Shown: piece by piece, positions 657 through 37,879 of the stretch
How positions within the stretch are numbered: position 1 is the stretch's first letter
How the letters are laid out: every line of letters starts with the position of its first letter
Notes under the pieces: model-generated
Told to the model about the DNA's origin: nothing
The model's database searches: none
Seen by the model: only the letters and a program-made list of their open reading frames with translations
NCBI GenBank assembly: GCA_965198225.1
Contig: CBDAOY010000006.1
Location: 864,001 to 928,000 of the forward strand
Reading direction: 5' to 3'
DNA: 64,000 nucleotides
Source of the DNA: Terriglobia bacterium
Lineage (GTDB): Bacteria; Acidobacteriota; Terriglobia; 20CM-2-55-15
Translations under genes and position numbers: made by a program

Positions 657-1816
657 CAGTTTCGCTGGCGCATGAAGTCACCGAAACGGTCCAGGGCGGC
701 CTCCAGTGTCTCGCCGGTGGATGCGAAGCAGAGGCGCAGGTATCCTTCGCCGCCCGGGCCGAAAGCCGATCCCGGGGCCAGGGCAACACCGGTCCGGCGC
801 ACCAGCTCTTCGGCGAAGGTCGCCGAATCCGTCAGCTCGTCGATCTGGAGGAATGCGTAGAATCCGCCCTCCGGCGGCGGCAAGGACACGCCCGGAAGCT
901 CGGCGATGCGATCCATGACCAGTCTCCTTCGCCCAGAGTACAGCTCGCGAAGCTCGGCGACGTAGGAATCCCCCTGCTCCAGCGCGACCACACCCGCCTC
1001 CTGGACCATCGCCGGAGCAGATGACGTCATGAATTCCGCTGCCGTTGTCATCAGCCCGACCAGGCGCTCGCTGCCCAATCCGTACCCGAGGCGCCATCCC
1101 GTCATGTTGTAGGACTTCGAAAAGCTGTTCACGACAAGGAGGTGTTCCCGATCGGTTGCGACCGCGGCGAAGGAAGGGGCAATGGGCGGGCCGAAGACCA
1201 GACGATCGTAGACTTCGTCGCTCAGGACAACGAAGTCGTTCCGGAGTGCGAGCTCCCAAAGCGCCTCCTGCTCCTCACGGGTGATGACCCACCCCGTCGG
1301 GTTGGACGGGCTGTTGATGGCCAACAGACTTGTGTGATCGTCGACGGCTTTGCGGATACGGTCCAGGTCGATGCGGAAAGCGTCGCCGTCGCGAGCGAGA
1401 GGCACCAGACGCGTCTCACCGCCGGCCATCGTGACCCCGGAAGAAAATATCGAGTAGGCGGGGCAGATGACGACGGCATTATCGCCAGGGCCGACGAGGG
1501 CCCGGATTGCGAGAAAGATCGCCATCCCCGCGCCTACCGTGGCGATGATTTCCGACGGCACGTATCGGACTCCGTGAAGTTGCTGGAACTTCACAGCCAC
1601 AGCTTCCCGCAGACGGTCCGATCCGCCTGGGTTTGTATAGAAGGTGTGTCCGGACAGGGAAGCCTCGTAGGCGGCTCGACAGATGAAATCCGGTGTCGGC
1701 ATATCGGACTCGCCGTAGCAGAGCTTGAGGGAACCGGGTACCTGTTCGGCTGCCGTGGCGATACGAACCAGCGGTGATTCCCTGACTTTGAGGACTTCAG
1801 GTCTGAATTGCATCAT
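656..1816 (-). CDS. PLP-dependent aminotransferase, class I/II (aspartate aminotransferase-like)
   Basis: Motifs NSPSNPTG, SDEVY and NSFSKSYNMTGWRLGY (PLP lysine). Start trimmed to MMQFRPE. Confidence 0.92.
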   Translation of the reverse strand: MMQFRPEVLKVRESPLVRIATAAEQVPGSLKLCYGESDMPTPDFICRAAYEASLSGHTFYTNPGGSDRLREAVAVKFQQLHGVRYVPSEIIATVGAGMAIFLAIRALVGPGDNAVVICPAYSIFSSGVTMAGGETRLVPLARDGDAFRIDLDRIRKAVDDHTSLLAINSPSNPTGWVITREEQEALWELALRNDFVVLSDEVYDRLVFGPPIAPSFAAVATDREHLLVVNSFSKSYNMTGWRLGYGLGSERLVGLMTTAAEFMTSSAPAMVQEAGVVALEQGDSYVAELRELYSGRRRLVMDRIAELPGVSLPPPEGGFYAFLQIDELTDSATFAEELVRRTGVALAPGSAFGPGGEGYLRLCFASTGETLEAALDRFGDFMRQRN

Positions 1817-1843
1817 GGAAACGCGCGCGGCTAACGTCAGCAT

Positions 1844-1851
1844 AGTATAAT
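1844..1851. promoter_or_regulatory. Overlapping divergent -10 elements (TATAAT on +, TATACT on -)
   Basis: AGTATAAT lies in the 59-bp gap between divergent starts at 1816 and 1876. Confidence 0.45.
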
Positions 1852-1875
1852 CCCTGATTTCCAGCCGAGGTCCGG

Positions 1876-3078
1876 ATGCCGGTTCCAACTGCATTTCACG
1901 AAAGAACCTTTGCGTTGTGCGAGAGCCTGAACTACCGGGAATGGTCGGGTTACTACGCTGTGAGCGCTTACGAGGCGCACCACGAGCATGAGTACAACGC
2001 CATCCGCAACGCCGCTGCACTGATCGACGTTTCACCTCTGTTCAAGTACAAGGTCACAGGACCGGACGCCACCAGACTGGTGGACCGGGTCGTTACTCGG
2101 GACATGGGCAAGGTCAAAGTGGGCCGCGTGATCTACACGCCCTGGTGCGACGAGAGCGGCAAGGTCATCGATGACGGGACAGTCTCTCGTCTGGAGGAGA
2201 ACACTTACCGGTGGACTGCCGCGGACCCGAGCCTGAGGTGGTTTCACCAGAACGCGCTGGGACTGGATGTTCGAATCGAAGACGCTTCAGAGAGCCTCGC
2301 GGCATTGGCCCTCCAAGGTCCGACCTCCGGGCGGCTGCTCGCCGGTCTCGCGGATGATGCCGATGTCGCGAATCTGAAGTATTTCAGCGTGCTCAGCAGC
2401 CGAATCGCCGGAGTGCCCGTCGACATCTCGCGGACCGGATACACGGGCGATCTCGGATACGAGCTCTGGATTCCAAGGGAGCACTCGCTTCGCGTCTGGG
2501 ATGCATTGATGGAGCGTGGTCGGGATTTCGACATCCATGCAGCCGGCATGCTGGCCTTGGATGTGGCGCGCATAGAAGCGGGCCTTCTGCTCATAGAAGT
2601 GAACTTCAACAGCAGCAAGAGATCCCTCATCGAGTCCCAGAAGTATTCGCCTTTTGAGATGGGTCTGGACCGGCTGGTCCATCTGGACAAGGGACGGTTT
2701 GTGGGCCAGTCGGCGCTCATCGAGGAAAAGAAGCGTGGCCATCCACGCCAGATCGTCGGTCTCGAGATCGGCTGGGAGGGAGTGGAACGGACATTTGAAG
2801 ATACGGGGCTGCCGCCGACGATGTCATCGACCGCATCCCGCGCTCCGGTGCCCGTCTACCGGGACGGGCGACAGGTGGGGAAGGCGACGTCCACGAGTTG
2901 GTCTCCCATTTTGAAGAAGCTCATCGCGCTGGCGACCATCAGCCGCGCGCACACCGGGGTAGCCACTGAGCTGGAGGTCGAGCTCACGGTCGAGGCGGTT
3001 CGCCACCGCGTTCCCGCCACGGTTGTCCAGACCCCATTTTATAATCCGAAGAGAAAGAAGAAGACGCCGATCGAGTAG
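1876..3078 (+). CDS. Aminomethyltransferase family protein (GcvT-like, THF-binding)
   Basis: Motifs EYNAIRNAAALIDVS, GKVIDDG, ALQGP, ISRTGYTGDLGYEL, RIEAG and TPFY; GAGG RBS. Confidence 0.9.
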   Translation: MPVPTAFHERTFALCESLNYREWSGYYAVSAYEAHHEHEYNAIRNAAALIDVSPLFKYKVTGPDATRLVDRVVTRDMGKVKVGRVIYTPWCDESGKVIDDGTVSRLEENTYRWTAADPSLRWFHQNALGLDVRIEDASESLAALALQGPTSGRLLAGLADDADVANLKYFSVLSSRIAGVPVDISRTGYTGDLGYELWIPREHSLRVWDALMERGRDFDIHAAGMLALDVARIEAGLLLIEVNFNSSKRSLIESQKYSPFEMGLDRLVHLDKGRFVGQSALIEEKKRGHPRQIVGLEIGWEGVERTFEDTGLPPTMSSTASRAPVPVYRDGRQVGKATSTSWSPILKKLIALATISRAHTGVATELEVELTVEAVRHRVPATVVQTPFYNPKRKKKTPIE

Positions 3079-3244
3079 GGAATATGAAATCTCGAATCTG
3101 CAACCTCGAATCTTCCTTGCGGACCCTCGAATAGTCAATCTGCGATGGAAGACGATGTGGGGCTGCTCGTTCGCCGACTCTTCTGCTTAGCGAAAACCCG
3201 CTGCCTAGCGAAAACCCCGAAAATGACCTTTCCTACAGGCGGGT

Positions 3245-3310
3245 GTAGGTGCGCTCTATGAGCGCACATCGTTTTGGCTCGAAGAATGTGCGGTCATAGA
3301 CCGCACCTAC
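3245..3310. repeat. GTAG-REP doublet (REPIN/BIME-like), copy 1
   Basis: GTAGGTGCGCTCTATGAGCGCAC, 20-nt spacer, GTGCGGTCATAGACCGCACCTAC; recurs elsewhere in the window. Confidence 0.9.
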
Positions 3311-3636
3311 AGTTCGCCGCCTTTCGGGCCGTAGAAAATCGCCCAGGCGACGAAATCGTCCGTGAACTCTTCGAAACGATGTTCGGCTCCGGCGGATACG
3401 AACAGCACATCCCCCTGGGCAAACTCCTGCCGTTCATCCTCGACCGACAACGTGCCGCTGCCGCGGACGACGACATAGACTTCGTCCTGTTCGTGCGGTT
3501 GCTGGAGGTCTCCGTCGCGAGGGGCGTACAGCAGGACCCGCAGGCTCCCGTTTTCGAACCCGTCCGCCACAAACTGTTCGCGGTTTCCGAGGGTGGCGAT
3601 CATGTCTTCGAGGCGAGCGGCCAGAAGCTTCGTCAT
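3307..3636 (-). CDS. Cupin domain protein
   Basis: QPHEQDEVYVVVRGSG and GDVLFVSAGAEHRF cupin motifs; ATGA overlap with the upstream gene. Confidence 0.85.
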   Translation of the reverse strand: MTKLLAARLEDMIATLGNREQFVADGFENGSLRVLLYAPRDGDLQQPHEQDEVYVVVRGSGTLSVEDERQEFAQGDVLFVSAGAEHRFEEFTDDFVAWAIFYGPKGGEL

Positions 3637-5222
3637 ATCGTTCCGTTCCTCAGATCCGCCAGGATCTCTCGACTCGCGTTCAAGCCCGGCGCTCCTGTAA
3701 TGCCTCCGCCGGGATGAGTTCCCGCTCCGCACAGGTACAGACCTTCGATCGGCGTCCGGTATCTGGACCAGCCGAGGAGCGGTCTGAAAGCGAACGCCTG
3801 ATCCAGTGATGGTTCGCCGTGGCCGACGTGGCCACCGCTGAGCCCGAAGGTTTGCTCGAGGTCCACCGGCGTAAGGATCTGACGTTCGACGATCAGTGCG
3901 CCGAGGCTCGGTGCGTAGGCCGATAGGGTGTCGACCACGGCGTCCCCCAGCTCTTCGCGGCGAGATGGCCAGTCGGCGCCTTTGAGCTCGTACGGAGCGT
4001 ATTGCATGTAGATCGACATTACATGGGCACCCTCTGGCGCGAGCGTCGGGTCGGCCAGCGACGGAATCACGACATCCAGGTATGGTCTTGGCGAAAAGTC
4101 ACCATATTTGGCCGCGTCGAACGCATGTTCGAGATAATCGGTGTCCGGACCGATGTGGATCCGTCCCGAAAGACTCGCCTCTTCGGTGACCCCGAAATCC
4201 GGCAGACCCGAAAGCGCGAGGTTGACCTTTGCAGCGGACCCCCGGCAGCGATAGTTCCCGATCTTCATCAGGAAGTTCGGATCCAGATCGACGGGGTCCA
4301 CCAACTGTAGGAAGGTATTCCTAGGATCGGCGTTCGAGACGACCATCCGGGCGGCGATCTCCTCCCCGGAAACCAGCCGCACTCCCTTGACCCTGTTGCC
4401 TGCGATCAGCACACGCTCGACCGGCGCCGCCGCTCGGATTTCCGCTCCCGCGGCTCGGGCAGCCGAGGCCAGAGCCTCGGAGAGCGCGCCCATCCCGCCC
4501 CTGACAAACACGGCGTCGGCGAATGCGGAGCCGTCCAGGGCAGCCTGCATCAGAACATTCAGGCTTGTCCCGGCCGAGCGGGGCCCCGCGAAGGTGCCCC
4601 GGATGCCGCGCGCCTCGATGATCCCCCGTAGCATCTCGGTCTCGAACCATTCCCCAGCCAGGTCTGCGACCGCCATTGGGCCCCAACGCAGCAGACGGAA
4701 AGCATTCTTTTTGTCCAACCCGCGGAAACGGAAGCCGAGCCGGCCGAAGTCCCAGAAGTCTCCTACCGTGGGATTGTCGATGTCCGGGGGCGTCATCGAC
4801 AGTAGGGGCGCCATTACGCGGCCGATATTGGAGAAGCTCTCTAGGAACTCTGGGTATTTTTCCGCGTCTCGTGCCGAAAACCGTCCGATGTCGTCGGCGG
4901 TGCGCCGGGCGTCTGTATAGACGTGGAGAGCGTCTCCGTCCAGGCGGGGCGCGAACAGGCGAACCTCGGGCGTGAGGAACGTCAACCCGTGTCCGGCGAG
5001 ACCAAGGTCATCGACGAGCCCCGGCAGCAGGGGACCTGCCGAGTGGGCGAGAGTGGGACAGCGGAATCCGGGGTGCAGCTCTTCGGTGACAGCGCCGCCT
5101 CCCACGATTTCGCGACGTTCGAGGACCAATGGAGCAAAGCCGGCCTTAGCCAGGTACGCGGCGGCGACCAGTCCGTTGTGTCCGGCGCCGATGACGACTG
5201 CCGCCCCGCCGCTCCCGGCCAC
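3633..5222 (-). CDS. Phytoene dehydrogenase-like FAD oxidoreductase (PYROXD2-like), paralog B
   Basis: VIGAGHNGLVAAAYLA Rossmann motif; C-terminal GLYLCGAGTHPGGGITGAPG; GTG start in a TAGTG overlap. Confidence 0.9.
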   Translation of the reverse strand: MAGSGGAAVVIGAGHNGLVAAAYLAKAGFAPLVLERREIVGGGAVTEELHPGFRCPTLAHSAGPLLPGLVDDLGLAGHGLTFLTPEVRLFAPRLDGDALHVYTDARRTADDIGRFSARDAEKYPEFLESFSNIGRVMAPLLSMTPPDIDNPTVGDFWDFGRLGFRFRGLDKKNAFRLLRWGPMAVADLAGEWFETEMLRGIIEARGIRGTFAGPRSAGTSLNVLMQAALDGSAFADAVFVRGGMGALSEALASAARAAGAEIRAAAPVERVLIAGNRVKGVRLVSGEEIAARMVVSNADPRNTFLQLVDPVDLDPNFLMKIGNYRCRGSAAKVNLALSGLPDFGVTEEASLSGRIHIGPDTDYLEHAFDAAKYGDFSPRPYLDVVIPSLADPTLAPEGAHVMSIYMQYAPYELKGADWPSRREELGDAVVDTLSAYAPSLGALIVERQILTPVDLEQTFGLSGGHVGHGEPSLDQAFAFRPLLGWSRYRTPIEGLYLCGAGTHPGGGITGAPGLNASREILADLRNGTI

Positions 5223-8678: not shown

Positions 8679-8715
8679 TGGTTTCCCGTCCTGAATGCAT
8701 CCTTCTCATCTGTTT

Positions 8716-8744
8716 TTATCGGCGAATTGGCCCGGAGTCTGTAG
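8716..8744 (-). promoter_or_regulatory. Putative sigma28 (FliA/SigD)-type promoter
   Basis: Minus strand reads CTACA-N16-GCCGATAA, about 38 nt upstream of the ATG at 8678. Confidence 0.5.
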
Positions 8745-9012
8745 TGCGTGGGTGTGGAGGTCCACGAAACGCTTGTGATGCACTGTAGGCGATTTTTTTA
8801 CAGCGAGTTAGCAGTCCGGGGGCGTGGCGGGGCAGCTGGTGTGGATCACACCCTTGAGCCGCGGCAGTGGGGGTAGATGCTTGAGCGATCAACTGATTCT
8901 TCGTCGAGCAGATCTCAGAAGCGGCCGGACCCGACTTCGGCTATCAGAACGAACTCGGGGCGGAACAGAATCGTTCCGCGCTGGAGGCGATCGATGCTTG
9001 CGTAGGAGGGTC

Positions 9013-9289
9013 CTAGTGACCTGTAACGGAGAGATCGGCACCATCGCCGATGGGTCTTGCCAGTCGAGGTCGAGGAGAGAGGAGGAATTGATGCGGTTTC
9101 ATCATGACGACAAACGACAAAGAGATCGACCCCAACCCCCATCGGCCGGGAGGGTTGCGGCGGAACGGTCGGGTCTTCGTTGCCGCGACCATTTATTGTA
9201 AGACCCGCTTGTCACGGGTCGTCGGTTCCTAGAATCCGGTGCCGTTCCACCGCAACGCTGGTACCGATATCTCCGTTACAGGCCACTAG
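9013..9289 (+). mobile_element. CTAG-bounded structured MITE-like repeat, copy A (277 bp)
   Basis: Imperfect 31-bp terminal inverted repeats CTAGTGACCTGTAACGGAGAGATCGGCACCA / TGGTACCGATATCTCCGTTACAGGCCACTAG; homologous to 12611-12885. Confidence 0.8.
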
Positions 9290-9311
9290 TCCGGATTATT
9301 TCCCTGGCAGG

Positions 9312-10151
9312 TCAACGGACGACCAGAACCGGCCGATCCAGCTCCAACAGAACCTCTTTGAAACCTCTCTCGAAAACATCTACCGTCGGGAGGATGAGGA
9401 TACCGGCATCTTCGACGAGGACCAGGTGTTCGAGCAGGGCGGCATCTCTCCTTGGGATGATGTTGAACCGAATCGGGGGCAGCGCGCCCAGTTCGTCCAA
9501 GTCCCGCTCTGCCTCCTCGCGGATTCGGCCTGCGTCCTCAGCCGAAGCGGGCACGAGAACGACGAGAGGGGTTCTCTCATCCCCGGCCAGTTGCACGGCG
9601 ATCGCAATGCCGGTCCGAGCGCAGGAGCTTCCATCGTAGACGACGAGCACCGCCTGGCCGGCCCTCAGTCCCTGGCGGAGCAGGAGGACAGGAGCGGCTG
9701 TCTTCGACAGGATCATTTCCGTCGTCGTTCCAATCTTGCGGCCCACGACAGACGACCAGCCACAATGACCGAGGCTGATCAGGTCGGCTTCCGCCGCCGC
9801 CGCGAGCACTTCCCGGGCGACGCCCCCCCGCGCAACTTTGAAGCTCCAATGCAGATGAGCCATGCCCGCAATGTGTTCCATCGCCCGTCGCGCCCTGACG
9901 GCCTGAGCCTTCAACTGCTGCTCCATGTCCCCGCGTTCGACGGGCCGCACCTCGCCCGAAAACGATCCGACCATCCGAGTGATCGGCAGCTCGGCTCCAC
10001 GGAGCAGGTCCTCGTCCTCCACGTACAGGCCGAGCAGCTCCGCTTCCAGGTATGCCGCCAGCCGCGCTGCGGCCTCCAGTGCCGCAAAGCTGTTCGGAGA
10101 TGCGTCCAGCGCGACGAGGATCCGTCGGATTGGGGTCGGCTTCGTGGTCAT
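9312..10151 (-). CDS. Universal stress protein (tandem USP domains)
   Basis: RRILVALDAS, ADLISLG, APVLLL, RPVLVVR; ATGA overlap with the Lon stop. Confidence 0.85.
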   Translation of the reverse strand: MTTKPTPIRRILVALDASPNSFAALEAAARLAAYLEAELLGLYVEDEDLLRGAELPITRMVGSFSGEVRPVERGDMEQQLKAQAVRARRAMEHIAGMAHLHWSFKVARGGVAREVLAAAAEADLISLGHCGWSSVVGRKIGTTTEMILSKTAAPVLLLRQGLRAGQAVLVVYDGSSCARTGIAIAVQLAGDERTPLVVLVPASAEDAGRIREEAERDLDELGALPPIRFNIIPRRDAALLEHLVLVEDAGILILPTVDVFERGFKEVLLELDRPVLVVR

Positions 10152-12592
10152 TGGGGTTCTTCTGCCTCTCCGGCGTCTTGCCCTTTGTCCGCGGATTCGA
10201 CGGACCTGGCGAAGGCCGCCTGCTTGCGTGCCATCTCCGTCAGGCGTTGCTGGACCCGGCCGTTGATGCTCTCGCGAGGATAGTCTCCAGATGCATCGCG
10301 CTCCCCTGCATCGATCCCCGTCAAGAGTTCGATTCCCTGATCGATGGTCTCGACCGGGTAGATGTGGAACTGACCATTTCGGACCGCCTCGACGACGTCT
10401 TCCCTCAGCATCAGATGGCGGACGTTGGACGCCGGTATGAGGACGCCCTGCTCCCCGGTCAATCCGCGAGCGTTGCACAGGTCGAAGAAACCCTCGATCT
10501 TGTAGTTTGCTCCGCCGATTGCCTGGACCTCTCCATGCTGGTTGACCGAGCCGGTGACGGCCAGCGACTGCTTGAGCCCGGCGCCGGATATGGCCGACAG
10601 CAGGGCGTAGAGTTCCGTCGACGACGCGCTATCCCCGTCTACTCCGCTGTAGGACTGCTCGAAAACCAGACTGGCCGACAGCGAGAGCGGATGGTTCGCG
10701 GCATAGCGGGCGCCCAGGAAACTGGTCAAGATCAGCACGCCTTTCGAGTGAATGGGACCGCTCAGCTCCACCTCCCGTTCGACGTTGACGACCTCGCCTT
10801 TGCCGAGCCGTGTACGAGCGGTAATCCGGCTGGGACGCCCGAAGGTGAAGTTTCCGAGTTGCAATACAGCCAGCCCGTTCACGGTCCCGACTTTGGAACC
10901 TTCCGTATCGATATAGATGGTGTTTCGCAGCACCTCGTCCTGCATCTGCTCACGCACACGATCGACGCGGTGAGTCTGTGCGTCTATCGCCTTGCCGACA
11001 TCGACGGCGCTGACCGTGGTGTTTCCGGATACACCGGCCCAGTAATCGGCCTCGCGGAGAAGGTCGGCCAGTCCGGCGATTCGGCCGCTGAGTTTCTCCG
11101 AATCACCCACGATGCGGGCGCTTTGTTCGATGATGCGCGCGACCGCGCTACGGTCGAAGGCTTTGAGTTCTTCTTTACGGGCGAGCGCCCCGATCAGCCG
11201 GGCGTAAATCTGTTGCGTGTCGTCATTTCTTTCGAACCGGTCGTCGAAGTCGGCCGCGACTTTGAACAGTTGTCCGAAGTCGGGATCATGCTGGCACAGG
11301 AGGTAGTAGAGCATCCGATCACCAAGGAGGACGACCTTGACGTCGAGCGGTACCGGTTCGGGCTCGAGCGAAATCGTGCTGACCATGCTCAGCGCCTGGC
11401 CGAGAGACTCGATCTTGATCTGCCCCGCCTGCAGGACCCGCTTCAGGGCTTCCCATGCGTAGGGCTGCATCAGGACACGCCGGACGTCGAGTACGAGGTA
11501 TCCTCCGTTGGCGCGGTGGAGTGCGCCCGGTCTGATCAGGTTGAAATCGGTGACGAGCGTTCCCATCTGGGATATGTGTTCCATCCGGCCGATGAGGTTT
11601 TCGTACCCCGGATGATCTTCGTAGATTACCGGCGCGCCCTGCCCTCGGGTGTGGTCGACAAGGACGTTGACCCGGTACCGCCGCGCCAGTGGAGATGCCT
11701 CCTGCGGGCGCCCCCCCGGTGGTGGGGCCTGGGGTTCCTGGGCCTGTATGAACTCTTTTGCGTACTGGATGAGGTCCTTGTGAACGGCTTCGAGGTAGTG
11801 AACGAGGGCAGGGAACTCCGCGTACTTATCGCGTAGCTCGTCGAGCAGGTGGCCGAGAGCGAAATCCGTGATGTCACGGTTCAGTTCTCGAACCTTGCCC
11901 CGCACCTCCCGTTCCCACTTGGGAAGACGTCGCAATATCCGCTGGAGTTCCTGTTGCAGTTCCTCGATGTCCGCTTCCAGGCGTTTCTGTTCTTCTTCAG
12001 GGAGCTGCTCGAAGGATTCATGGGTGATGACTTCGCCGTCCTTGACGGGCGCGAACACCATGCCGACCGGCGTTTGCAGCATCGTGAACCCCTTTGCCTT
12101 TGCCTTGTCCTGAAGTTCTTCGAGACGCTTTTCGTGGCGCTCCTTGAAGTCCTGCTGCAGGGAGTGGAGGCGCGCCTGGTATTCCTCGCTTTCGAAAGCC
12201 GCCGGAAGTGCGGTGCCGATCTCCTCGACCAGGTCATCCATGTCCTGCTTCAGTTTCATGGCCGTGCCGGCCGGCAGTTGGAGGAGTGTCGGCCGGTTGG
12301 GCTCCTCGAAGTTGTTGACGTAGCAAATGTCGGGGGGTATGGGTTTCCTGGCGGCTTCCTGATTCAAGAAGTGCTCGACGATGAACTGTTTACCCGTGCC
12401 GGCCGGGCCCAGAGCGAAGAGGTTGTAGCCTTCGTGGGTCATACCGACGGCAAACTGGACCGACTCGACCGCACGCGACTGTCCTACGATATCAATGCCG
12501 TCGTCGAGGTCCGCCGTCGTTTCGAAGTCCAAGAGTGCCGGGTCACATCGCGTGTAAAGCGCGTCCAGGTCGAGTTCTTTGGGAACACCCAT
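10148..12592 (-). CDS. Lon-like protease (AAA_32 + Lon_C, LonC/YcbZ type)
   Basis: GPAGTGK, GALHRANGGYL, catalytic GVDGDSAS and KIEGFF Ser-Lys dyad; AAAGGAGA RBS. Confidence 0.92.
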   Translation of the reverse strand: MGVPKELDLDALYTRCDPALLDFETTADLDDGIDIVGQSRAVESVQFAVGMTHEGYNLFALGPAGTGKQFIVEHFLNQEAARKPIPPDICYVNNFEEPNRPTLLQLPAGTAMKLKQDMDDLVEEIGTALPAAFESEEYQARLHSLQQDFKERHEKRLEELQDKAKAKGFTMLQTPVGMVFAPVKDGEVITHESFEQLPEEEQKRLEADIEELQQELQRILRRLPKWEREVRGKVRELNRDITDFALGHLLDELRDKYAEFPALVHYLEAVHKDLIQYAKEFIQAQEPQAPPPGGRPQEASPLARRYRVNVLVDHTRGQGAPVIYEDHPGYENLIGRMEHISQMGTLVTDFNLIRPGALHRANGGYLVLDVRRVLMQPYAWEALKRVLQAGQIKIESLGQALSMVSTISLEPEPVPLDVKVVLLGDRMLYYLLCQHDPDFGQLFKVAADFDDRFERNDDTQQIYARLIGALARKEELKAFDRSAVARIIEQSARIVGDSEKLSGRIAGLADLLREADYWAGVSGNTTVSAVDVGKAIDAQTHRVDRVREQMQDEVLRNTIYIDTEGSKVGTVNGLAVLQLGNFTFGRPSRITARTRLGKGEVVNVEREVELSGPIHSKGVLILTSFLGARYAANHPLSLSASLVFEQSYSGVDGDSASSTELYALLSAISGAGLKQSLAVTGSVNQHGEVQAIGGANYKIEGFFDLCNARGLTGEQGVLIPASNVRHLMLREDVVEAVRNGQFHIYPVETIDQGIELLTGIDAGERDASGDYPRESINGRVQQRLTEMARKQAAFARSVESADKGQDAGEAEEPQ

Positions 12593-12610
12593 CAGTAGTC
12601 TCCTTTGACA

Positions 12611-12885
12611 CTAGTGGCCTGTAACAATGCTATCGGTACCATCGCCGATGGGTCTTGCGGGCGAGGTCGAGGAGGGAGACGGAAAGCGATGCTCATTCAT
12701 CGGTGACGGCTTCCGACAAAGAGATCGCCCGCAACCCCCATCGGCCCGAAGGGTTCGGCGGAACGGCGCCGTCTTCGGTGTCGTAACTCCCTCGCAATGA
12801 AACAGCATTGGCTCGGGCGTCACTCCTAGAATCCGACGCCGTTCCGCCGAACGCTGGTACCGATAGCATTGTTACAGGTCACTAG
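12611..12885 (+). mobile_element. CTAG-bounded structured MITE-like repeat, copy B (275 bp)
   Basis: TIRs CTAGTGGCCTGTAACAATGCTATCGGTACCA / TGGTACCGATAGCATTGTTACAGGTCACTAG. Confidence 0.8.
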
Positions 12886-12894
12886 TCTACAGCA

Positions 12895-12983
12895 GCCATA
12901 CCTATCAGCTATCAGCTGTCAGCCGATCCACGAAAACATTTGGACGCGCGTAGATTGAGCTGATAGCTGGTCGCCGAAAGCTT
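12895..12983. repeat. Inverted pair of degenerate heptamer arrays (TCAGCTA/TCAGCTG ... AGCTGAT/AGCTGGT)
   Basis: ctatcagctatcagctgtcagc, about 33 nt of spacer, then gagctgatagctggtcgccgaaagct. Confidence 0.55.
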
Positions 12984-12987
12984 AAAG

Positions 12988-13264
12988 CTAGCAGCCCGTG
13001 GCAGAACTCTGCAGGGCCGCGTTACGGCCAAACGGGGCCGGATTCTAGGAGGCGAGGACGAAACAATGCTCTTTCATTGGGAGGAGTCGGCGACAAGGAA
13101 GGCGGCCCCGTTTCGCCGTAACCCGAAGGGCGCAGAGGGGTTCGGGCCGCAGGCTTTGTCGTTCGTCGGCCCCGATGAATGATCATCGCTCCGCTCCTCT
13201 CTTCGCGCCTGCAACCCGAAGACCCCTGCGCGCGACCCTGCAGAGTTCTGCCACGGGCTGCTAG
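12988..13264 (-). mobile_element. CTAG-bounded structured MITE-like repeat, copy C (277 bp, opposite orientation, different TIR sequence)
   Basis: TIRs CTAGCAGCCCGTGGCAGAACTCTGCAGGG / CCCTGCAGAGTTCTGCCACGGGCTGCTAG. The reverse complement shares CGATG..CATCG and CAATG..CATTG with B, and CGACAAAG and CCTAGAATCCG with A and B. Confidence 0.75.
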
Positions 13265-15732
13265 GGTGTTCCGGCGGTGCGGGCGTTTTGTACGGATACC
13301 TGGGAGTCCAGAAAACTGCGGATTCTACTCAGCAGAGCCGCTTCAGTGAAAGGCTTCTGGATCAGGTGTACGTCGGCTGGGAGGATTCCGGCCTTTCCGA
13401 TTGCCGTGTCAGTGTAGCCGGACATGTAGACGACTCCGATTGGCCGGGTCTTTGCGATCTCTCCGGCGAGTTCCCTGCCGTTCATCTCAGGCATCACGAC
13501 ATCGCTCAAAACCATGTCGATCTGCCCTTCGTACCGTTCGACGATGTACAACGCCTCGGAGGGAAGGCCCGCTTCGAGAATCCGATAGCCGGATCTTCGG
13601 AGCATGTCGCACGTCAGCCTGCGGACCATCTCCTCGTCCTCGACAACCAGAATTGTCTCGCTTCCCCGTCGGGAGTCGGATGCCTCGGTCCTGGCCTTTC
13701 GTGCCACAGATTCGTCCAGCATCGGCAGGTAGATCCGGAACGTCGTTCCGGTACCCGGCTGGCTGTCGACCTGAACCGTTCCGCCATTCTGCTCGACCAT
13801 CGCATACACGGTGGCCAATCCGAGCCCGGTCCCTTTGCCGGGGTCCTTGGTGGTGAAGAACGGTTCAAAGATGCGTGGCTGAACCGCCTCGTCGATACCA
13901 CATCCCGTATCGCTGACCCTCAGCACGATGAACGGCCCGGGGCCCAGTCCGACGGGAAACGGAAGCGCCGGGTCGTCTTTCGTTGCGTTGGCCGTTTCGA
14001 TCAATAGCTTGCCGCCGCTCGGCATCGCATCTCGGGCGTTCACGATGAGGTTCATGATGCCCTGTTCGATCTGACCCGGATCGGCCTTGATCAGGCCCAG
14101 CTCGGGGTGGGTTCGTGTTGAAAGAACGACGTCGGAGCCGATCAACCGCCGGACCATTCCATCCATGTTCGAGATCACTTCATTCAGATTCAGCACTCTC
14201 GGTTGTCGGACCTGCTTCCGGCTGAACGCTAGCAGTTGTTGGGTCAGGGCTGCGGCCCTCTCGGTGGCTTTGCGCGTCTGCTCCAGGTTGTCACGAACGT
14301 CGCCCGGCGGTTCCAGATGATCGAGGGAGAGCTTGGTGTAGCCGAGGATAACCGTCAACAGATTGTTGAAGTCGTGAGCGATCCGGCCGGCGAGCCTCCC
14401 GACCGCCTCCATCTTCTGGGAGTGACGCAGCTGTTCTTCGAGTTCACGCTGCTGGGTGACATCCTGGCCGATGCCGATGGAGGTTCCGTCAGAAAGACGG
14501 ACGTTGGCCCAATTCGTTTCGAGCGTACGTCCATCCTTGACCCGGGTCTTGAAAGAACGCCATCCGGAATGTGACGAAGACATGTGGGAGATTGCCTCCT
14601 TGCGTTCTGTCGGATCCGGATAGCACTCGGCCATCAGGTCGATGCCGCTCAGTTCATCCCGTGACCAGCCCATGATCTGCTCGAATTCCTGGTTGACGAC
14701 ATCGATCGCCCCTTTGCCGTCATGCAGCGCGACCATGACCGGGATGTGGTCGAAGATCTTCTGGAACCGTTCGGTCTGGCCGCGCAGGGCAGACTCGGTA
14801 CGCCTCCGCTGTTCGGTAACGACTGCCAGGATCAGAGAAGAGAGAATCGCCACAGCGAGGTAGGTCTGGAGGAAAACGACCTGCTCGCCGACATCGCGAG
14901 CGATGAACGTCATCGGTCCGAGACCGTGTGCCGTGTTCCAGACTGCGACGACCGAAAACAGGAACAAGGCCGTGGAAACGCCGACTGGGCCGAGGCGCAG
15001 CGCCGCCCAGATCAGAAAAGGGAACGTGACGTAGAGCAGCGACAACAGCAGCCCGGAACCGGCGTTGTCCGAACCGAATATGATCGCGGTGCTGACGCCA
15101 AGGCCGAGAAAGAGGGCGCAGGCTTCCGCGACCCGTTGCCACCGAAGATCGGGGGAACTCATGGTCGCTAGCGACAGGACGAGCGGAGTGCCGAGCAGGA
15201 CGCCCAGGGTATCGGAAACCCACCAGAGACGCACTTCCCGCCACAAATTGGCGTCGAAACTGACACTGATGATGGCCGCAGCCGGAATCGCCATGACCGC
15301 AATGGTTGCTGCCGCGAGCAGGACAGCCGACGCAAGCCGATGTACGCTGTCCAACCGAATTTGCGACCCGCACACCCGAGTGATGAGCAACGCCGCGAGT
15401 CCGACTTGGACACAGTTCAACAGGGCCAGCACAGTGGCAGGCAGCATCGGGTATCCCGCAGTCAGGCTTGCGGCGACTTCTCCGACGAGTACGGCCGCCA
15501 GAATCGGGAACCATAACTGTCGTTCGCTGACGAGTAGGATCGCAAGTACTATGCCGGCGGCCGGCCAGATCGTGCCGTTGCCCTCAGGTGGGATGATCAG
15601 GGCTAACCCGAGTTGGACGCTTATGAACTGAATCAGCGCGACCATTCCGAGCGTCGATGCAAATCGGGTGCCTGGACTCAGGCCGTCGAGGAACCCGAAT
15701 CGCCCCTGAACCCCGTCCGACGAGGGAAACAT
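13261..15732 (-). CDS. Hybrid sensor histidine kinase (MASE1-PAS-HisKA-HATPase-REC)
   Basis: IWPAAG and [12 protein letters not shown]1 transmembrane region; AHDFNNLL H-box; NARDAMP; FFTTK..GTGLGL; receiver ILVVEDE / SDVVMP / KPF. Confidence 0.93.
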
Positions 15733-35132: not shown

Positions 35133-35205
35133 TGGACCTGACGGGGATCGAACCCGTGACCTCATGACTGCCAGTCATGCGCGCTCCCAGCTGCGCCACA
35201 GGCCC
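35133..35205 (-). tRNA. tRNA-Ala(GGC), CCA not fully encoded
   Basis: GGGCCTGTGGCGCAGCTGGGAGCGCGCATGACT-GGC-AGTCATGAGGTCACGGGTTCGATCCCCGTCAGGTCCA; G3:U70 Ala identity pair. Confidence 0.96.
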
Positions 35206-35486: not shown

Positions 35487-37127
35487 ATGAGCAATGTCTT
35501 GAGCACAGAAAAGAGAGAGCAAGTTGTTGCATTGGGGCGGCTTGGATGGCCGCTGCGTCGGATCGAACAGACCACCGGCGTGCGTCGTGAGACGGCCAGT
35601 GCGTATCTGAGAGCGGCCGGAATCCCCATTCGGCCGCCCGGGAGTTGGGGCCGGCGACCGGCAAAACCGGCCAACGAGGTGACCACCGACCCGGACGGCG
35701 TAAATGGTGTCGTTGAGGGGTTTGGCGGTTCCGATACTTCAAAACCGGCCAACGAAGTGACCACCGACCCGGAGGCCGAGAATCCGGTCTCGGCAGAGTC
35801 GTCGGCTCCCCCTCCAAGCCCACCGTCGGGCAGTTCCTGCGAGCCGTACCGGGAGACCATCCAACAGGCGCTGGAGCGTGGCCGCAACGCGATGGCGATC
35901 TGGCAGGACCTGGTCACGGATCACGGTTTTGTCGGCAGCTACGAATCGGTCAAGCGTTTCGTTCGCAAACTCCGGGGAGTGCGATCCCCGGAAGCGGTCG
36001 GAATCATCCAGACCGGAGCTGGAGAGGAAGCGCAGGTCGACTACGGGACCGGACCGATGGTCCGGGATCCGAAGACGGGCAAGTACCGACGGACGCGGCT
36101 GTTCGTGATGACGTTGGGCTACAGCCGCAAATCGGTCCGGCTGCTGACGTTCAAGTCCAGTTCCCGCATCTGGGCCCAGTTGCACGAGACCGCGTTCCGC
36201 CGACTCGGCGGCACTCCCCGCCTCATCGTGCTGGATAACCTGCGCGAAGGCGTGATCGTCCCGGACCATTACGACCCCACCCTGAATCCGTTGTTTCGAG
36301 ATGTCCTGACCCATTACGGCGTGGTGGCCATGCCATGCCGGGTGCGCGATCCAGACCGCAAAGGCAAAGTCGAATCCGGTGTCGGGCACGCCCAGAAGAC
36401 CCCATTGAAGGGACAGCGCTTCGAGAGCCTCGACCAGGCCCAGGGGTATCTGGATCGCTGGGAAGTCCGATGGGCCGACACCCGCATCCACGGCACGACC
36501 AAGCGGCAGGTGGCGGCCATGTTCGCCGAAGAGAAACCATCTCTTAAGCCGCTGCCGATCGAACCGTTTCGCTATTACCAATTCGGTGAACGTGTCGTCC
36601 ATCTCGACGGTTGCGTCGAAGTCGAAGCCGCCTATTACAGTGTACCGCCGGGCTGGATCGGACGGGGTGTCAAGGTCCAGTGGGACACGCTTCACGTCCG
36701 GATCCTGGACCCAAACACCTATCCACTCCTCCGCGAGCATGTCCGCCAGAAGCGGGGTGGATACCGTGTCCGTGCTGAAGACAACCCGAAGAAAACCCCG
36801 TTAACGACGGTGCAACTGCTGGCCCGAGCCCGCCGCGCTGGCACCCACATCGGCACACTCTGTGACGCCATTCACCGCCGACAAGGGGAAGCTGCGGTCC
36901 GCCGCATCCTGGGTGTGCTCTCCCTGGCCAAGAAGTACGGTGTCTCCGCCGTGGAGGATGCTTCGGCTGCGGCACTGGAACTCCACGTCTACGAGTATCG
37001 TTTCGTCCGCCGCTATCTGGAGCGGCGACCTCCACTCGCCCTGCGTCAGGTCGATCCTCTCATTCGCGAACTGACTCAGTATCGCGATCTCATCAACCTC
37101 AAAATCCAGGAGCAGGAACACTCATGA
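35487..37127 (+). CDS. istA: IS21 family transposase
   Basis: EEAQVDYG, LGYSR, VLDNL, RKGKVESGV (DDE), RIHGTT. Confidence 0.95.
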   Translation: MSNVLSTEKREQVVALGRLGWPLRRIEQTTGVRRETASAYLRAAGIPIRPPGSWGRRPAKPANEVTTDPDGVNGVVEGFGGSDTSKPANEVTTDPEAENPVSAESSAPPPSPPSGSSCEPYRETIQQALERGRNAMAIWQDLVTDHGFVGSYESVKRFVRKLRGVRSPEAVGIIQTGAGEEAQVDYGTGPMVRDPKTGKYRRTRLFVMTLGYSRKSVRLLTFKSSSRIWAQLHETAFRRLGGTPRLIVLDNLREGVIVPDHYDPTLNPLFRDVLTHYGVVAMPCRVRDPDRKGKVESGVGHAQKTPLKGQRFESLDQAQGYLDRWEVRWADTRIHGTTKRQVAAMFAEEKPSLKPLPIEPFRYYQFGERVVHLDGCVEVEAAYYSVPPGWIGRGVKVQWDTLHVRILDPNTYPLLREHVRQKRGGYRVRAEDNPKKTPLTTVQLLARARRAGTHIGTLCDAIHRRQGEAAVRRILGVLSLAKKYGVSAVEDASAAALELHVYEYRFVRRYLERRPPLALRQVDPLIRELTQYRDLINLKIQEQEHS

Positions 37128-37879
37128 ATCTGATCGAACTCCAGCGGGCTCTCCGACAACTCCGGCTCGGCGGCATTGCCGAGGTGTTGGAAACACGCCT
37201 CCACCAGGCCCAGACCGAAGCCATGGCGCCGATCGACTTGGTCTCTCGTCTGGTCTCGGATGAACTGGACCGTCGCAGCATCCGGTTGTTGGAACGGCGT
37301 CGGAAACAGGCCCGGTTCCGCGATCCCCAGAAGACGCTCGACTCCTTCGACTTTACTTTCAACAAGAAGATGAATCGTAGTCTGGTCTTCGACCTGGCGA
37401 CGGGCGCCTTCATCTCCAGGCACGACGATGCCTTGTTTCTCGGTCCTCCTGGCACCGGCAAGAGTCATCTGGCTCAGGCCATCGGCTTGGCTGCCATTGA
37501 GCAGGGCTATCGGGTCGTCTACCGTGAAACTCATGCGCTTCTCGACGACATCGCCGAAGCCACCATTGACGGTACCCGAAAGGAGTGCATGGAAGCTTTG
37601 GCGACGGTCCCGCTGCTGATCATCGACGATCTGGGGATGCGGAAGCTTCCTCCCACTGCAGCAGAGGAACTCCTCGAGATCGTGATGCGACGCTATGAAC
37701 GGACCAGTACGTTACTGACATCGAATCGACCCGTCCAAGACTGGGGAAAACTACTGGGTGATAGCGCCGCCGTCACAGCCATGCTGGACCGGCTGCTCCA
37801 TCACGGCCACATCCTCAAATGCGGCCCTCGGAGTTGGAGGACTAAAACGGGCTTGCCGAGTCCAGTCCCAAAGAGGTAG
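37124..37879 (+). CDS. istB: IS21 helper ATPase
   Basis: GPPGTGKSHLA, LLIIDDLG, TSNRP, LDRLLHH; ATGA overlap with istA. Confidence 0.95.
   Translation: MNLIELQRALRQLRLGGIAEVLETRLHQAQTEAMAPIDLVSRLVSDELDRRSIRLLERRRKQARFRDPQKTLDSFDFTFNKKMNRSLVFDLATGAFISRHDDALFLGPPGTGKSHLAQAIGLAAIEQGYRVVYRETHALLDDIAEATIDGTRKECMEALATVPLLIIDDLGMRKLPPTAAEELLEIVMRRYERTSTLLTSNRPVQDWGKLLGDSAAVTAMLDRLLHHGHILKCGPRSWRTKTGLPSPVPKR

Follow-up and report, generated by a model that had tools for sequence, protein, structure and literature searches.

We found that three copies of a folded, CTAG-bounded element in a 64-kb window (the whole stretch of 64,000 nucleotides of Terriglobia DNA that was analysed) belong to a repeat family that is widespread in soil Acidobacteria. 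The family is new but of a known element kind, and is not a new system; we put the probability that it is an unusually structured MITE family of the IS630 type at about 0.7. The elements have the hallmarks of MITEs: no conserved ORF, dispersal, near-identical copies with different flanks, CTAG target-site repeats and IS630-like termini.

Structure and distribution of the elements

The three copies, of 275-277 bp and bounded by CTAG, lie where they were first read, and all have the same Y-shaped fold of an outer stem, two arms and a 9-nt central hairpin, as the preliminary description had it.

9013..9289, + strand: copy A, A/B subfamily, 277 bp, the most decayed of the three; covariance model 210.1 bits
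Segments of A: outer stem 9013-9046 / 9256-9289; arm 1 9047-9145; central hairpin 9146-9154; arm 2 9155-9255
9228-9238: CCTAGAATCCG of A
9013..9016 and 9286-9289: left CTAG of A and matching CTAG, target-site repeat
12611..12885, + strand: copy B, A/B subfamily, 275 bp; covariance model 265.2 bits
Segments of B: outer stem 12611-12644 / 12852-12885; arm 1 12645-12744; central hairpin 12745-12753; arm 2 12754-12851
12825-12835: CCTAGAATCCG of B
12611..12614 and 12882-12885: left CTAG of B and matching CTAG
12988..13264, - strand (reversed): copy C, C subfamily, 277 bp; covariance model 297.8 bits
Segments of C: outer stem 13231-13264 / 12988-13021; arm 1 13131-13230; central hairpin 13122-13130; arm 2 13022-13121
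13039-13049: CCTAGAATCCG of C
13261-13264 and 12988-12991: CTAG of C and matching CTAG

The outer inverted repeats measure 34 nt in A (88% complementary), 35 nt in B (94%) and 34 nt in C (97%). The compensating stem differences quoted earlier between the copies are present, and the inverted motif of AGGAG, a small hairpin and CGACA was found in both arms. CCTAGAATCCG has three exact matches in the window, one per copy, and five sites if up to one mismatch is allowed, against 1.16 expected. Its reported invariance holds for the three window copies and breaks down in L053 916-1192, a copy that was found independently of the search pattern and has one mismatch; beyond the window, the invariance is partly a product of the search pattern used. 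A covariance model built on 25 copies found no further copy in the window.

Copy A adjoins a Usp-domain ORF (9312-10154, -), 22 nt downstream of its stop, and copy B is 18 nt upstream of a LonC-like protease ORF (10148-12592, -), measured from the start codon. The TAG stop of a MASE1-PAS-histidine kinase-receiver ORF (13261-15732, -) sits within the terminal CTAG of copy C at 13261-13264. The elements themselves have no conserved reading frame, in agreement with the earlier view that they hold no convincing coding region; in B a stop comes 5 codons after the arm 1 ATG, in A this ATG has another frame, and other subfamilies have lost it.

A scan of public genomes, from which at least 56 loci were fetched, placed the family in at least 40 of them, all from 12 Acidobacteriota (Terriglobia) assemblies. 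The covariance-model search, which the preliminary description had proposed along with a covariation test, returned at least 38 full two-armed copies (three of them in the window), two one-armed and four partial copies from 39 loci and the window, and nhmmer added one fragment, in locus L032. The element was absent from 16 of the 56 fetched loci, 15 belonging to other phyla and one, L048, to an additional Terriglobia assembly. Its length is usually about 276 bp; one-armed copies are shorter, at about 165 bp, and modular forms, in which extra hairpin modules occupy four fixed sites, measure 301-388 bp. Several of the subfamilies (A/B, C, V, L046 and one-armed) have different ends and the same core, and truncated copies occur in L049, L032, L026 and L052. 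A text search of the literature gave no description of the family. Comparison with Rfam, also proposed at the outset, gave no match even at E ≤ 1.

Conservation of pairing

The RNA minimum free energies of A, B and C were -128.6, -167.4 and -180.2 kcal/mol (z = -5.9, -12.8 and -12.7), and for each copy 0 of 200 shuffles folded as well as the real sequence. Across the family the outer stem spans 34-42 bp, and the arms, which are diverged inverted duplicates of each other, are 100 nt each. The covariation of these stems is real. Double-sided changes were present in 42 of the 75 stem pairs of the family alignment, paired cells amounted to 95.3% (33-43% in slid controls), and the covariation score was 0.433, compared with 0.134 for shuffled and 0.054-0.088 for slid alignments. 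Compensating changes were not confined to the outer stem: they also affected 10 of the 16 pairs of arm 1 and 5 of the 18 pairs of arm 2, so that the idea of pairing conserved through compensation was upheld. Because the covariation extends inside the arms, an origin by dimerisation of one end cannot explain those changes.

Conservation along the element is inverted relative to a textbook MITE, which speaks against the MITE reading: conservation is highest in the core, arm 2, and the inner part of the outer stem is the most variable. Since the core is best conserved, and since the stems of the elements are 88-100% complementary compared with 73% in the IS described below, the pairing is kept by something other than the binding of a transposase.

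Insertion sites and mobility

The copies are scattered over intergenic sites that are unrelated to one another, and both orientations occur. Two copies of one chromosome, in L009 and L010, share 99.6% identity but not their flanks, and window copy B and the copy in L016 (97.1% identical) likewise differ in their flanks; none of the fetched loci shares flanks with the window. CTAG stands at both ends of 23 of 34 full copies, and one or both ends deviate from it in nine. The same non-CTAG 4-mer is found at both ends in L054 (TTAG/TTAG) and L017 (CTGG/CTGG), and these are target-site duplications. A terminal CTAG pair would stem from duplication either of the TA alone, within CTAG, or of all 4 bp. 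The ends of L054, and those of an ISBmu8-like copy (CTAC/CTAC; see below), resemble 4-bp duplications, the habit of IS5, whereas TA duplication is the better fit for L034, L043 and L047, which end in CTAG/CTAC.

All 34 copies lie outside long ORFs accepted as genes; ORFs overlapping copies run through the repeat and had no Pfam match where scanned. The TAG stop of a neighbouring ORF falls inside the terminal CTAG of 12 of the 34, a frequency that agrees with target availability in the window. The window contains 39 CTAG sites, whereas base composition predicts 225 and a Markov model 71. Nine of the 39 sites belong to the three copies, and the 30 outside them comprise 12 intergenic sites, 6 stop codons and 12 sites inside ORFs. 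As CTAG is depleted about six-fold and a third of non-genic CTAGs are TAG stops, copies would gather at gene ends and in promoter regions and leave the genes unbroken. We also noted that the neighbour of the copy in L033 is DDE_Tnp_1_4.

An IS630-family candidate partner

In all two-armed subfamilies, the 12-13 nt next to the CTAG have a common pattern, YRKCCYGT..CAG. The earlier statement that the terminal inverted repeats are not conserved in sequence is thus correct for the inner outer stem, which differs, and incorrect for these patterned first nucleotides. We compared the first 28 nt of each end, ungapped, with the best of eight IS ends, using 5000 shuffles. One-armed ends matched IS630-family ends at 17-18 of 28 positions (0-1 shuffles as good) and L046 ends at 15 of 28 (39-44 shuffles as good); both resemble IS630-family ends beyond chance. 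For A/B and V ends (13-14 of 28; 58-353 shuffles as good) the resemblance is marginal. As a yardstick, distant IS ends within this IS630 subgroup share 11-17 of 28 positions. C-type ends showed no resemblance to the eight IS ends compared.

A complete, CTAG-bounded IS of 1157 bp (1559-2715) is present in L025, which shares its 6.47-Mb contig with 15 element-bearing loci. It adjoins a C-type copy, with one CTAG common to both. Its ends matched those of C-type elements, the commonest type in this genome, at 8-9 of 28 positions, and 2803-3638 of the 5000 shuffles did as well. The IS has inverted repeats of 40 nt, 73% complementary, and an ORF of 361 aa with HTH domains and DDE_3, which scored 268.5 bits against the NCBIfam model 'IS630 family transposase' (cut-off 100). 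It was the only IS630 copy seen, with none in the window. Plasmid-borne relatives of its transposase (56-64% identity) belong to the ISBmu8-like copy, bounded by CTAC/CTAC, and to ISRjo2 and a Variovorax copy, both bounded by CTAG/CTAG; the ends of these relatives likewise begin with TG. IS630-family elements have TA duplications at their flanks and move by cut and paste, according to a passage in PMC2170065, whose reference list includes a 1991 paper by Tenzen and Ohtsubo on preferential insertion 'to TA in the 5'-CTAG-3' sequence'.

The preliminary description had set the elements apart as unlike an ordinary MITE. The prevalence of CTAG at both ends, the semi-conserved termini and the CTAG-bounded IS630-family IS in the same genome speak against this. 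It had also named ends matching a described IS as evidence against its view, and, since the ends resemble those of IS630 and a complete IS630-family IS is present in the same genome, such a match has largely been found.

In the IS630-type MITE reading, an IS630/Tc1-mariner-family transposase encoded elsewhere in the genome would move the elements in trans, recognising the terminal ~13-28 bp at both ends, excising the element and inserting it into the TA of a CTAG. The fold, possible on either strand, would reflect hairpin-dependent processes on a DNA palindrome and not a dedicated RNA gene. Such processes may include selection for copies still able to fold or synapse, or quasi-palindrome correction by template switching during replication. 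When a copy is transcribed by a neighbouring gene, its fold would lie in the 5′ or 3′ untranslated region and may have an effect there.

Alternative explanations

A DDE transposase of IS5, or of another family that duplicates 4 bp, could instead have moved the elements by a 4-bp staggered cut at CTAG/YTAR, an origin that we regard as unlikely. The ends of L054 and of L017 are each explained most simply by a single duplication of 4 bp at a non-canonical target. The target duplication made by IS5 is 4 bp long, with CTAA or CTAG flanking its copies, as stated in PMC11677980 and PMC10379815, and MITEPsy1 of Pseudomonas syringae, which inserts at and duplicates CTAG or YTAA, is ascribed to an IS5-family IS in a section of PMC3189936. 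However, no IS5-family transposase was found beside any copy or in the window, where the DDE_Tnp_1 IS has a 9-bp duplication and unrelated ends. The CTAG-bounded IS that does lie beside a copy is of the IS630 family, its plasmid relatives are similarly bounded, and the CTAG/CTAC ends of three copies fit TA duplication.

That the Y fold was selected as RNA, in structured ncRNA genes or cis-regulatory modules with dispersal being secondary, is very improbable, even though strong covariation in all three helices and the conserved loops of arm 2 would be in keeping with it. The same is true of the hairpin modules that long variants add at fixed sites, like RNA expansion segments, of two tandem U.G pairs fixed in C-type arm 1, and of three V-type positions that are G.U only on the reverse strand (copies from 4 assemblies). 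Mobile repeats that are structured, are transcribed and show compensating changes are also known, bcr1 being an example described in PMC3184786. Selected RNAs, however, tolerate G:U far better than A:C, whereas the mismatches here were without strand bias (G:T 67 and A:C 67 of 2833 cells in 38 copies; 32 and 41 in the 25-copy set). Of 38 copies, only 20 had the forward strand as the more stable RNA (Wilcoxon p = 0.90), and the favoured strand varies by subfamily. Where the stop of a gene overlaps a copy, a hand count showed that the transcript of that gene reads the element in the forward direction 8 times and in the reverse direction 4 times. Copies contain no sigma-70-like promoter or intrinsic terminator, and they decay and truncate. 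The structured ncRNA suggested in the preliminary description thus gained no specific support, and the lack of mismatch strand bias, the equal folding of the DNA strands of copy C (-99.1 and -98.5 kcal/mol, z about -11) and the lack of an Rfam match argue against a dedicated RNA gene. Equal folding of both strands would suit a folded ssDNA substrate of an HUH transposase (IS200/IS605 or RAYT-like) or of a tyrosine recombinase, a giant REPIN- or attC-like element inserting into CTAG. So would the retention of pairing but not of sequence, conservation that is symmetric between strands, and compensation that is frequent even among close copies (31 cells compensated and 30 uncompensated over 30 stem positions in 21 C-type copies). 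We nevertheless consider this the least probable explanation. The identical non-palindromic 4-mers of L054 and L017 point to staggered-cut duplications, which HUH enzymes do not make; no Y1/HUH transposase, integrase or tyrosine recombinase was found among 106 flanking ORFs, nor Y1/HUH or integrase among 22 window ORFs; and the copies are single and dispersed, not cassette arrays. Furthermore, pairing joins the two ends, unlike in IS200/IS605, which typically carry subterminal hairpins on one strand.

Relation to known elements

The IS630/Tc1-mariner MITEs, such as RUP of Streptococcus pneumoniae, which is attributed to IS630-Spn1, are likewise small, non-coding elements that have terminal inverted repeats and occur in many copies dispersed between genes. 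They share with the present family insertion at TA, for which IS630 prefers TA within CTAG (by a reference title in PMC2170065), and the genome carrying the present copies has a CTAG-bounded IS630-family IS. The present element is 2-3 times longer than RUP (107 bp) and differs from RUP-type MITEs in its Y shape with two long arms, in a core more conserved than the inner inverted repeats, in having several subfamilies with different ends and the same core, and in its host phylum, Acidobacteriota.

Rickettsia palindromic elements, to which the preliminary description had loosely likened the family, are also dispersed palindromic repeats with the potential to fold, and they typically lie in frame inside genes, in contrast to the present copies. 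REPINs and REPs, mobilised by RAYT, are palindromic intergenic inverted doublets whose hairpin pairing is kept in within-genome evolution; REPs go together with an HUH gene and do not duplicate their target. The present element is similarly palindromic and intergenic, with inverted doublets and retained pairing, but neither these last two REP features nor the REP length of 20-40 bp and head of GTAG or CGTC were seen in it. The bcr1 repeat of the Bacillus cereus group is a mobile repeat with short direct repeats at its flanks and has no sequence relation to the present element. It is ~155 bp long, its direct repeats are of 5 bp and its transcription has been demonstrated (PMC3184786), whereas the duplication here is at CTAG. 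MITEPsy1, which shares the CTAG target, is 100 nt long with 18-nt inverted repeats like those of an IS5-family IS, whereas the ends of the present elements resemble those of the IS630 family.

Three copies of the repeat in the window

The three copies of the repeat in the window were found at the coordinates reported in the preliminary description:

9013–9289, forward: copy A
12611–12885, forward: copy B
12988–13264, reversed: copy C

Each copy starts and ends with CTAG and has terminal inverted repeats of 34–35 nt that are 88–97% complementary. All three fold alike: an outer stem carries two arms of ~100 nt, separated by a central hairpin of 9 nt, and the folding energies (z=-5.9 for A, -12.8 for B and -12.7 for C) were equalled by none of 200 shuffles of the respective copy. 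The string CCTAGAATCCG, which had been called invariant, indeed occurs once per copy and is absent from the rest of the 64 kb; a covariance model built later revealed no fourth copy in the window. An ORF overlapping copy A has no Pfam match.

Copies A and B, in the same orientation, bracket two genes:

9312–10154, minus strand: Usp-domain ORF
10148–12592, minus strand: LonC-like protease

Copy A lies 22 nt past the stop of the Usp-domain ORF and copy B 18 nt upstream of the start of the protease gene. The two copies could work as a composite transposon, or copy B could supply or displace a promoter. The 102-bp spacer between copies B and C (12886–12987) contains a separate inverted repeat of 12 nt, CAGCTATCAGCT / AGCTGATAGCTG, seen by eye near 12909 and 12959; lying between the kinase and protease genes, it might serve as an operator or a terminator.

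Size and architecture of the family

Public genomes were scanned with a degenerate pattern of 16 bases taken from arm 2. At least 56 loci match, so that the family exceeds the set described here; the element was recognized in these loci with nhmmer and a covariance model of 277 positions and 75 pairs (R1). Among the loci listed, 40 contain the element, all of them from 12 assemblies labelled Acidobacteriota or Terriglobia, Candidatus Versatilivorator included. The 16 element-free loci are chance matches to the pattern; 15 of them belong to other phyla, and L048 belongs to another Terriglobia assembly. The matches listed comprise at least 38 full two-armed copies, three of them in the window, at least 2 one-armed copies, and fragments. 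Since the search pattern lies in arm 2, it accounts in part for the conservation of the arm-2 motif beyond the window; the L053 copy at 916–1192, found by adjacency alone, has one mismatch in this motif.

Copies range from 165 to 388 bp. The two arms, in which inverted versions of one motif had been noted earlier, proved to be diverged inverted duplicates of a single unit: both strands match the models, the forward strand with about twice the bits. The one-armed form (~165 bp) retains only the outer stem and arm 2. In the long forms (301–388 bp), extra segments occupy four fixed sites; the first two segments are mutual reverse complements and would extend arm 1. Variant copies include the following:

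L001 1396–1563: one-armed variant, uncultured Acidobacteriota MAG
L028 1401–1557: one-armed variant, uncultured Acidobacteriota MAG
L052 1051–1285: copy of the A/B type with two modular inserts, ending where a C-type copy starts (1286)

An isolated arm-1 match also occurs in the last of these loci (1083–1218). Other copies come in close pairs, such as the two in L053, 69 bp apart, and B and C of the window, 102 bp apart. The repeats appear to insert into or beside one another.

Conservation is highest in arm 2 and lowest in the middle of the outer stem, the opposite of the pattern of a textbook MITE.

Mobility and coding capacity

Two copies in different places of one chromosome (L009 and L010) are 99.6% identical and have unrelated flanks, and copy B is 97.1% identical to a copy in a Terriglobia MAG (L016) whose flanks differ, so that the window is probably from an organism related to that MAG. 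No flank was common to the window and any of the loci listed, and the sole syntenic pair of loci was uninformative on empty sites. Both ends are CTAG in 23 of 34 full copies, and one or both ends are mutated in 9. Two copies carry another identical 4-mer at both ends, TTAG in L054 and CTGG in L017; as these repeats are direct and of a non-palindromic 4-mer, they represent a target-site duplication and do not belong to the inverted repeat. By eye, the flanks of the copies did not fit a duplication of 6 bp (NCTAGN), the habit of IS481, and this reading was rejected.

The matches listed also include decayed and truncated copies. There is no conserved reading frame, with stops and frame-shifting indels between copies. 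Coding from the ribosome-binding-site-like AGGAG and the ATG in the arms was considered and rejected, because the frames are not conserved and the L052 copy has an in-frame stop. Candidates for a longer, gene-carrying copy also failed: the partial matches in L049 and L032 are truncated remnants, the match in L026 has lost its 5' stem, and the A/B-type copy of L052 is truncated at the start of the C-type copy. No stray terminal repeats were found beside an ORF in the window or the loci listed, and a blastn search of a plasmid collection with copy C gave no match. The repeats are small and non-coding, have terminal inverted repeats and target-site duplications, are dispersed in many copies at non-homologous sites and show signs of recent movement, as MITEs do.

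CTAG targets and gene ends

Rickettsia palindromic elements insert in frame inside protein-coding genes. The loose likeness to them suggested in the preliminary description does not extend to this feature, as all 34 of 34 full copies lie outside long ORFs accepted as genes. The 106 flanking ORFs are unrelated genes of ordinary kinds. Among the 32 copies that have a neighbour on each side, the four combinations of gene orientation occur 11, 8, 7 and 6 times.

In 12 of 34 copies the terminal CTAG contains the TAG stop of the neighbouring ORF; for copy C, this is the stop of a histidine kinase gene (13261–15732). CTAG is strongly depleted in the window: there are 39 sites, where base composition predicts 225 and a Markov model 71, and the three copies contain 9 of them. 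The 30 sites outside the elements comprise 6 stop codons, 12 intergenic sites and 12 sites within ORFs. Stop codons thus make up a third of the targets at which an insertion would disrupt no gene, matching the proportion observed, and no special mechanism is needed: copies lie exactly at gene ends because the depleted target overlaps TAG stops. This targeting makes effects on transcript 3' ends testable. A paper on CTAG methylation in haloarchaea (PMC7002104) proved irrelevant to the repeat family.

Conservation of pairing

We analysed covariation in an alignment of 25 copies of 274–278 nt (A2). The stems covary, as had been noted from the window copies: RNAalifold predicted 75 pairs, 42 of which have changed on both sides. 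By helix, such changes affect 26 of 32 outer-stem pairs, 10 of 16 arm-1 pairs and 5 of 18 arm-2 pairs. Paired cells amounted to 95.3%, as compared with 78.5% in column shuffles (0 of 500 reached the observed value) and 32.7–43.3% when the pairing was slid by 1–3 columns; the covariation score was 0.433, versus 0.134 and 0.054–0.088, respectively. Among 21 C-type copies we found 19 distinct versions of the stem, and at 30 stem positions 31 cells had changed alike on both arms and 30 differed.

Such pairing could indicate the structured non-coding RNA proposed in the preliminary description, a reading that the strand symmetry of the copies argues against. G:T mismatches, which an RNA under selection would tolerate far better than A:C, are no more frequent than A:C mismatches: 38 copies have 2621 Watson–Crick cells, 67 G:T, 67 A:C and 78 other, and the 25-copy set has 1752, 32, 41 and 50, respectively. 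In 20 of 38 copies the RNA of the forward strand is the more stable one (p=0.90). Folded as DNA, copy C gives -99.1 kcal/mol for one strand and -98.5 kcal/mol for the other. Copies are also oriented both ways relative to a transcript reading into them (8 forward and 4 reverse, counted by hand). A search of Rfam with the whole window at gathering thresholds returned only a tRNA, and 8900–13400 had no match at E<=1. A scan of 8700–13500 for promoters and terminators found none inside the copies, with counts equal to the shuffle expectation; a sigma-70 or ECF promoter at TAGAAT and GGAAC in arm 2, considered by eye, was discarded for its unsuitable spacings. Taken together, the strand symmetry, the mixed orientation and the lack of promoter, terminator and Rfam matches make a strand-specific RNA gene unlikely. 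Pairing could be maintained by selection, acting on single-stranded DNA that can fold or on the symmetry of the ends of active copies, or by template-switch correction of quasi-palindromes during replication, a known mutational process.

Alternatively, the Y fold itself may be under selection, with the arm-2 core as a functional structured module placed on several sets of transposon ends. The core would act either as RNA, in the untranslated regions of the preceding genes, or as single-stranded DNA while the element transposes or is replicated. The variability of the mid-stem, the conservation of arm 2 and stems that are better paired than IS ends sustain this reading, under which the middle of the outer stem, hypervariable and with its changes always compensated, could diversify freely as long as it stays paired. 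We consider it rather improbable; if true, the family would plant one folded regulatory or processing module precisely at TAG stops across Terriglobia genomes.

In the subfamily typical of Versatilivorator (V-type), the reverse strand is favoured as RNA in all six copies, by 3–22 kcal/mol. These copies (L009, L010, L003, L015, L022 and L017), from four assemblies, have two or three recurrent A.C mismatches in the outer stem, which would be G.U pairs on the reverse strand; two are at fixed positions and the third shifts by one.

A candidate transposase partner

One of the element-bearing loci, L025, contains a complete insertion sequence (IS):

L025 1559–2715: IS630-family IS, 1157 bp, CTAG-bounded, 40-nt ends 73% complementary
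L025 1617–2699: transposase ORF, 361 aa, helix-turn-helix domains and DDE_3 (NF033545, 268.5 bits, cut-off 100)

This IS directly adjoins a C-type copy, with the terminal CTAG common to both, which shows that its target choice is the same as that of the repeats. Its contig (CBDHGK010000041) carries 15 of the element-bearing loci listed; no IS630-family transposase was seen in the 64-kb window. Plasmid relatives of the transposase, with 56–64% identity, are annotated as ISBmu8-like, ISRjo2 and IS630 family; their boundaries are CTAC/CTAC, CTAG/CTAG and CTAG/CTAG, respectively, and all ends start with TG.

We compared the first 28 nt of the repeat ends with the best of 8 IS ends, using 5000 shuffles; on this scale, distant IS ends within the subgroup share 11–17 of 28 positions. 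The ends of the one-armed form were the most IS630-like, with 17–18 matches (0–1 of 5000 shuffles as good), followed by those of the L046 subfamily with 15 (39–44 shuffles) and of the A/B and V types with 13–14 (58–353 shuffles). The similarity is significant for the one-armed form and L046 and marginal for the A/B and V types. The ends of C-type copies, with 8–9 matches, are not similar. The stems of the elements pair much more completely than do the ends of the IS itself.

IS630 reportedly prefers the TA within CTAG, as the title of a cited paper has it. The passages of PMC2170065 that deal with IS630-family elements describe TA duplications at the flanks and cut-and-paste movement. Under this scheme the CTAG at each end would include a 2-bp duplication, and the CTAG/CTAC ends of 3 copies fit a duplication of TA. 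The same termini could be produced by an IS5-type element, since portions of three reports describe a 4-bp duplication of CTAG by IS5 and by MITEPsy1, an IS5-related MITE (PMC11677980, PMC10379815, PMC3189936). The TTAG/TTAG ends of L054 fit 4 bp, so that some non-canonical ends read as a 4-bp duplication and others as a 2-bp one. No IS5-family IS is present in the window or the loci listed. We favour an IS630-family transposase as the candidate partner of the repeats, with an IS5-type enzyme as the less likely alternative.

A further IS in the window was rejected as a partner, because its target duplication is 9 bp (CTCCGTGAT) and it is not CTAG-bounded. It shares a short string, GTGTCC, with the one-armed ends.

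38023–39339: IS4-like IS with ~15-nt terminal inverted repeats
38042–39202, minus strand: its ORF, DUF4372 and DDE_Tnp_1

To the left of this IS lie a tRNA gene (35133–35205, minus strand) and then an IS21-like ORF (35487–37127, plus strand) with rve and Mu-transposase C-terminal domains, which is overlapped by a second ORF (37124–37879, plus strand).

Relation to known elements

The repeats were also compared with REP/REPIN sequences and integron attC sites, as possible folded single-stranded DNA substrates of an HUH enzyme or a tyrosine recombinase. REP/REPIN sequences are palindromes of 20–40 bp with a GTAG/CGTC head and are associated with an HUH (RAYT) gene, whereas the repeats have arms of ~100 nt and CTAG ends; no Y1/HUH domain was found in the 106 flanking ORFs of the loci listed or in the 22 ORFs of the window. 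Integron attC sites are imperfect palindromes of 57–141 bp with conserved core sites, in cassette arrays beside an integrase, in contrast to the single, dispersed repeats of ~276 bp. The flanks of the loci listed contain no integrase domain, and no attC core-site motif was apparent by eye at the copy ends.

Passages of a review of bacterial MITEs (PMC3184786) list RUP, Correia, ERIC, Nezha and Chunjie as having stable folds. We accordingly class the repeats as a new family that belongs to a known kind of element, and they are not a new kind of system. We found no published description of the family; the supplementary catalogue of a MITE survey (PMC11602168) could list it.

The family provides a defined repeat for Acidobacteriota, a phylum that is dominant in soil but poorly studied, and points to a candidate transposase partner. 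It is of use in annotation, as gene calling places spurious small ORFs over the repeat, and also in assembly and strain typing. With dozens of copies per genome, it is a natural data set on how a long DNA palindrome retains its pairing: because compensated and uncompensated stem changes are about equally frequent and there is no strand bias, selection on the fold and template-switch correction can be contrasted.

In L010, 114 bp to the right of the copy, an ORF (1678–3018) encodes the AEP primase domain of a TOTE conflict system (PF22548, E=6.8e-93). It is a defence-system gene of Ca. Versatilivorator, unrelated to the repeat.
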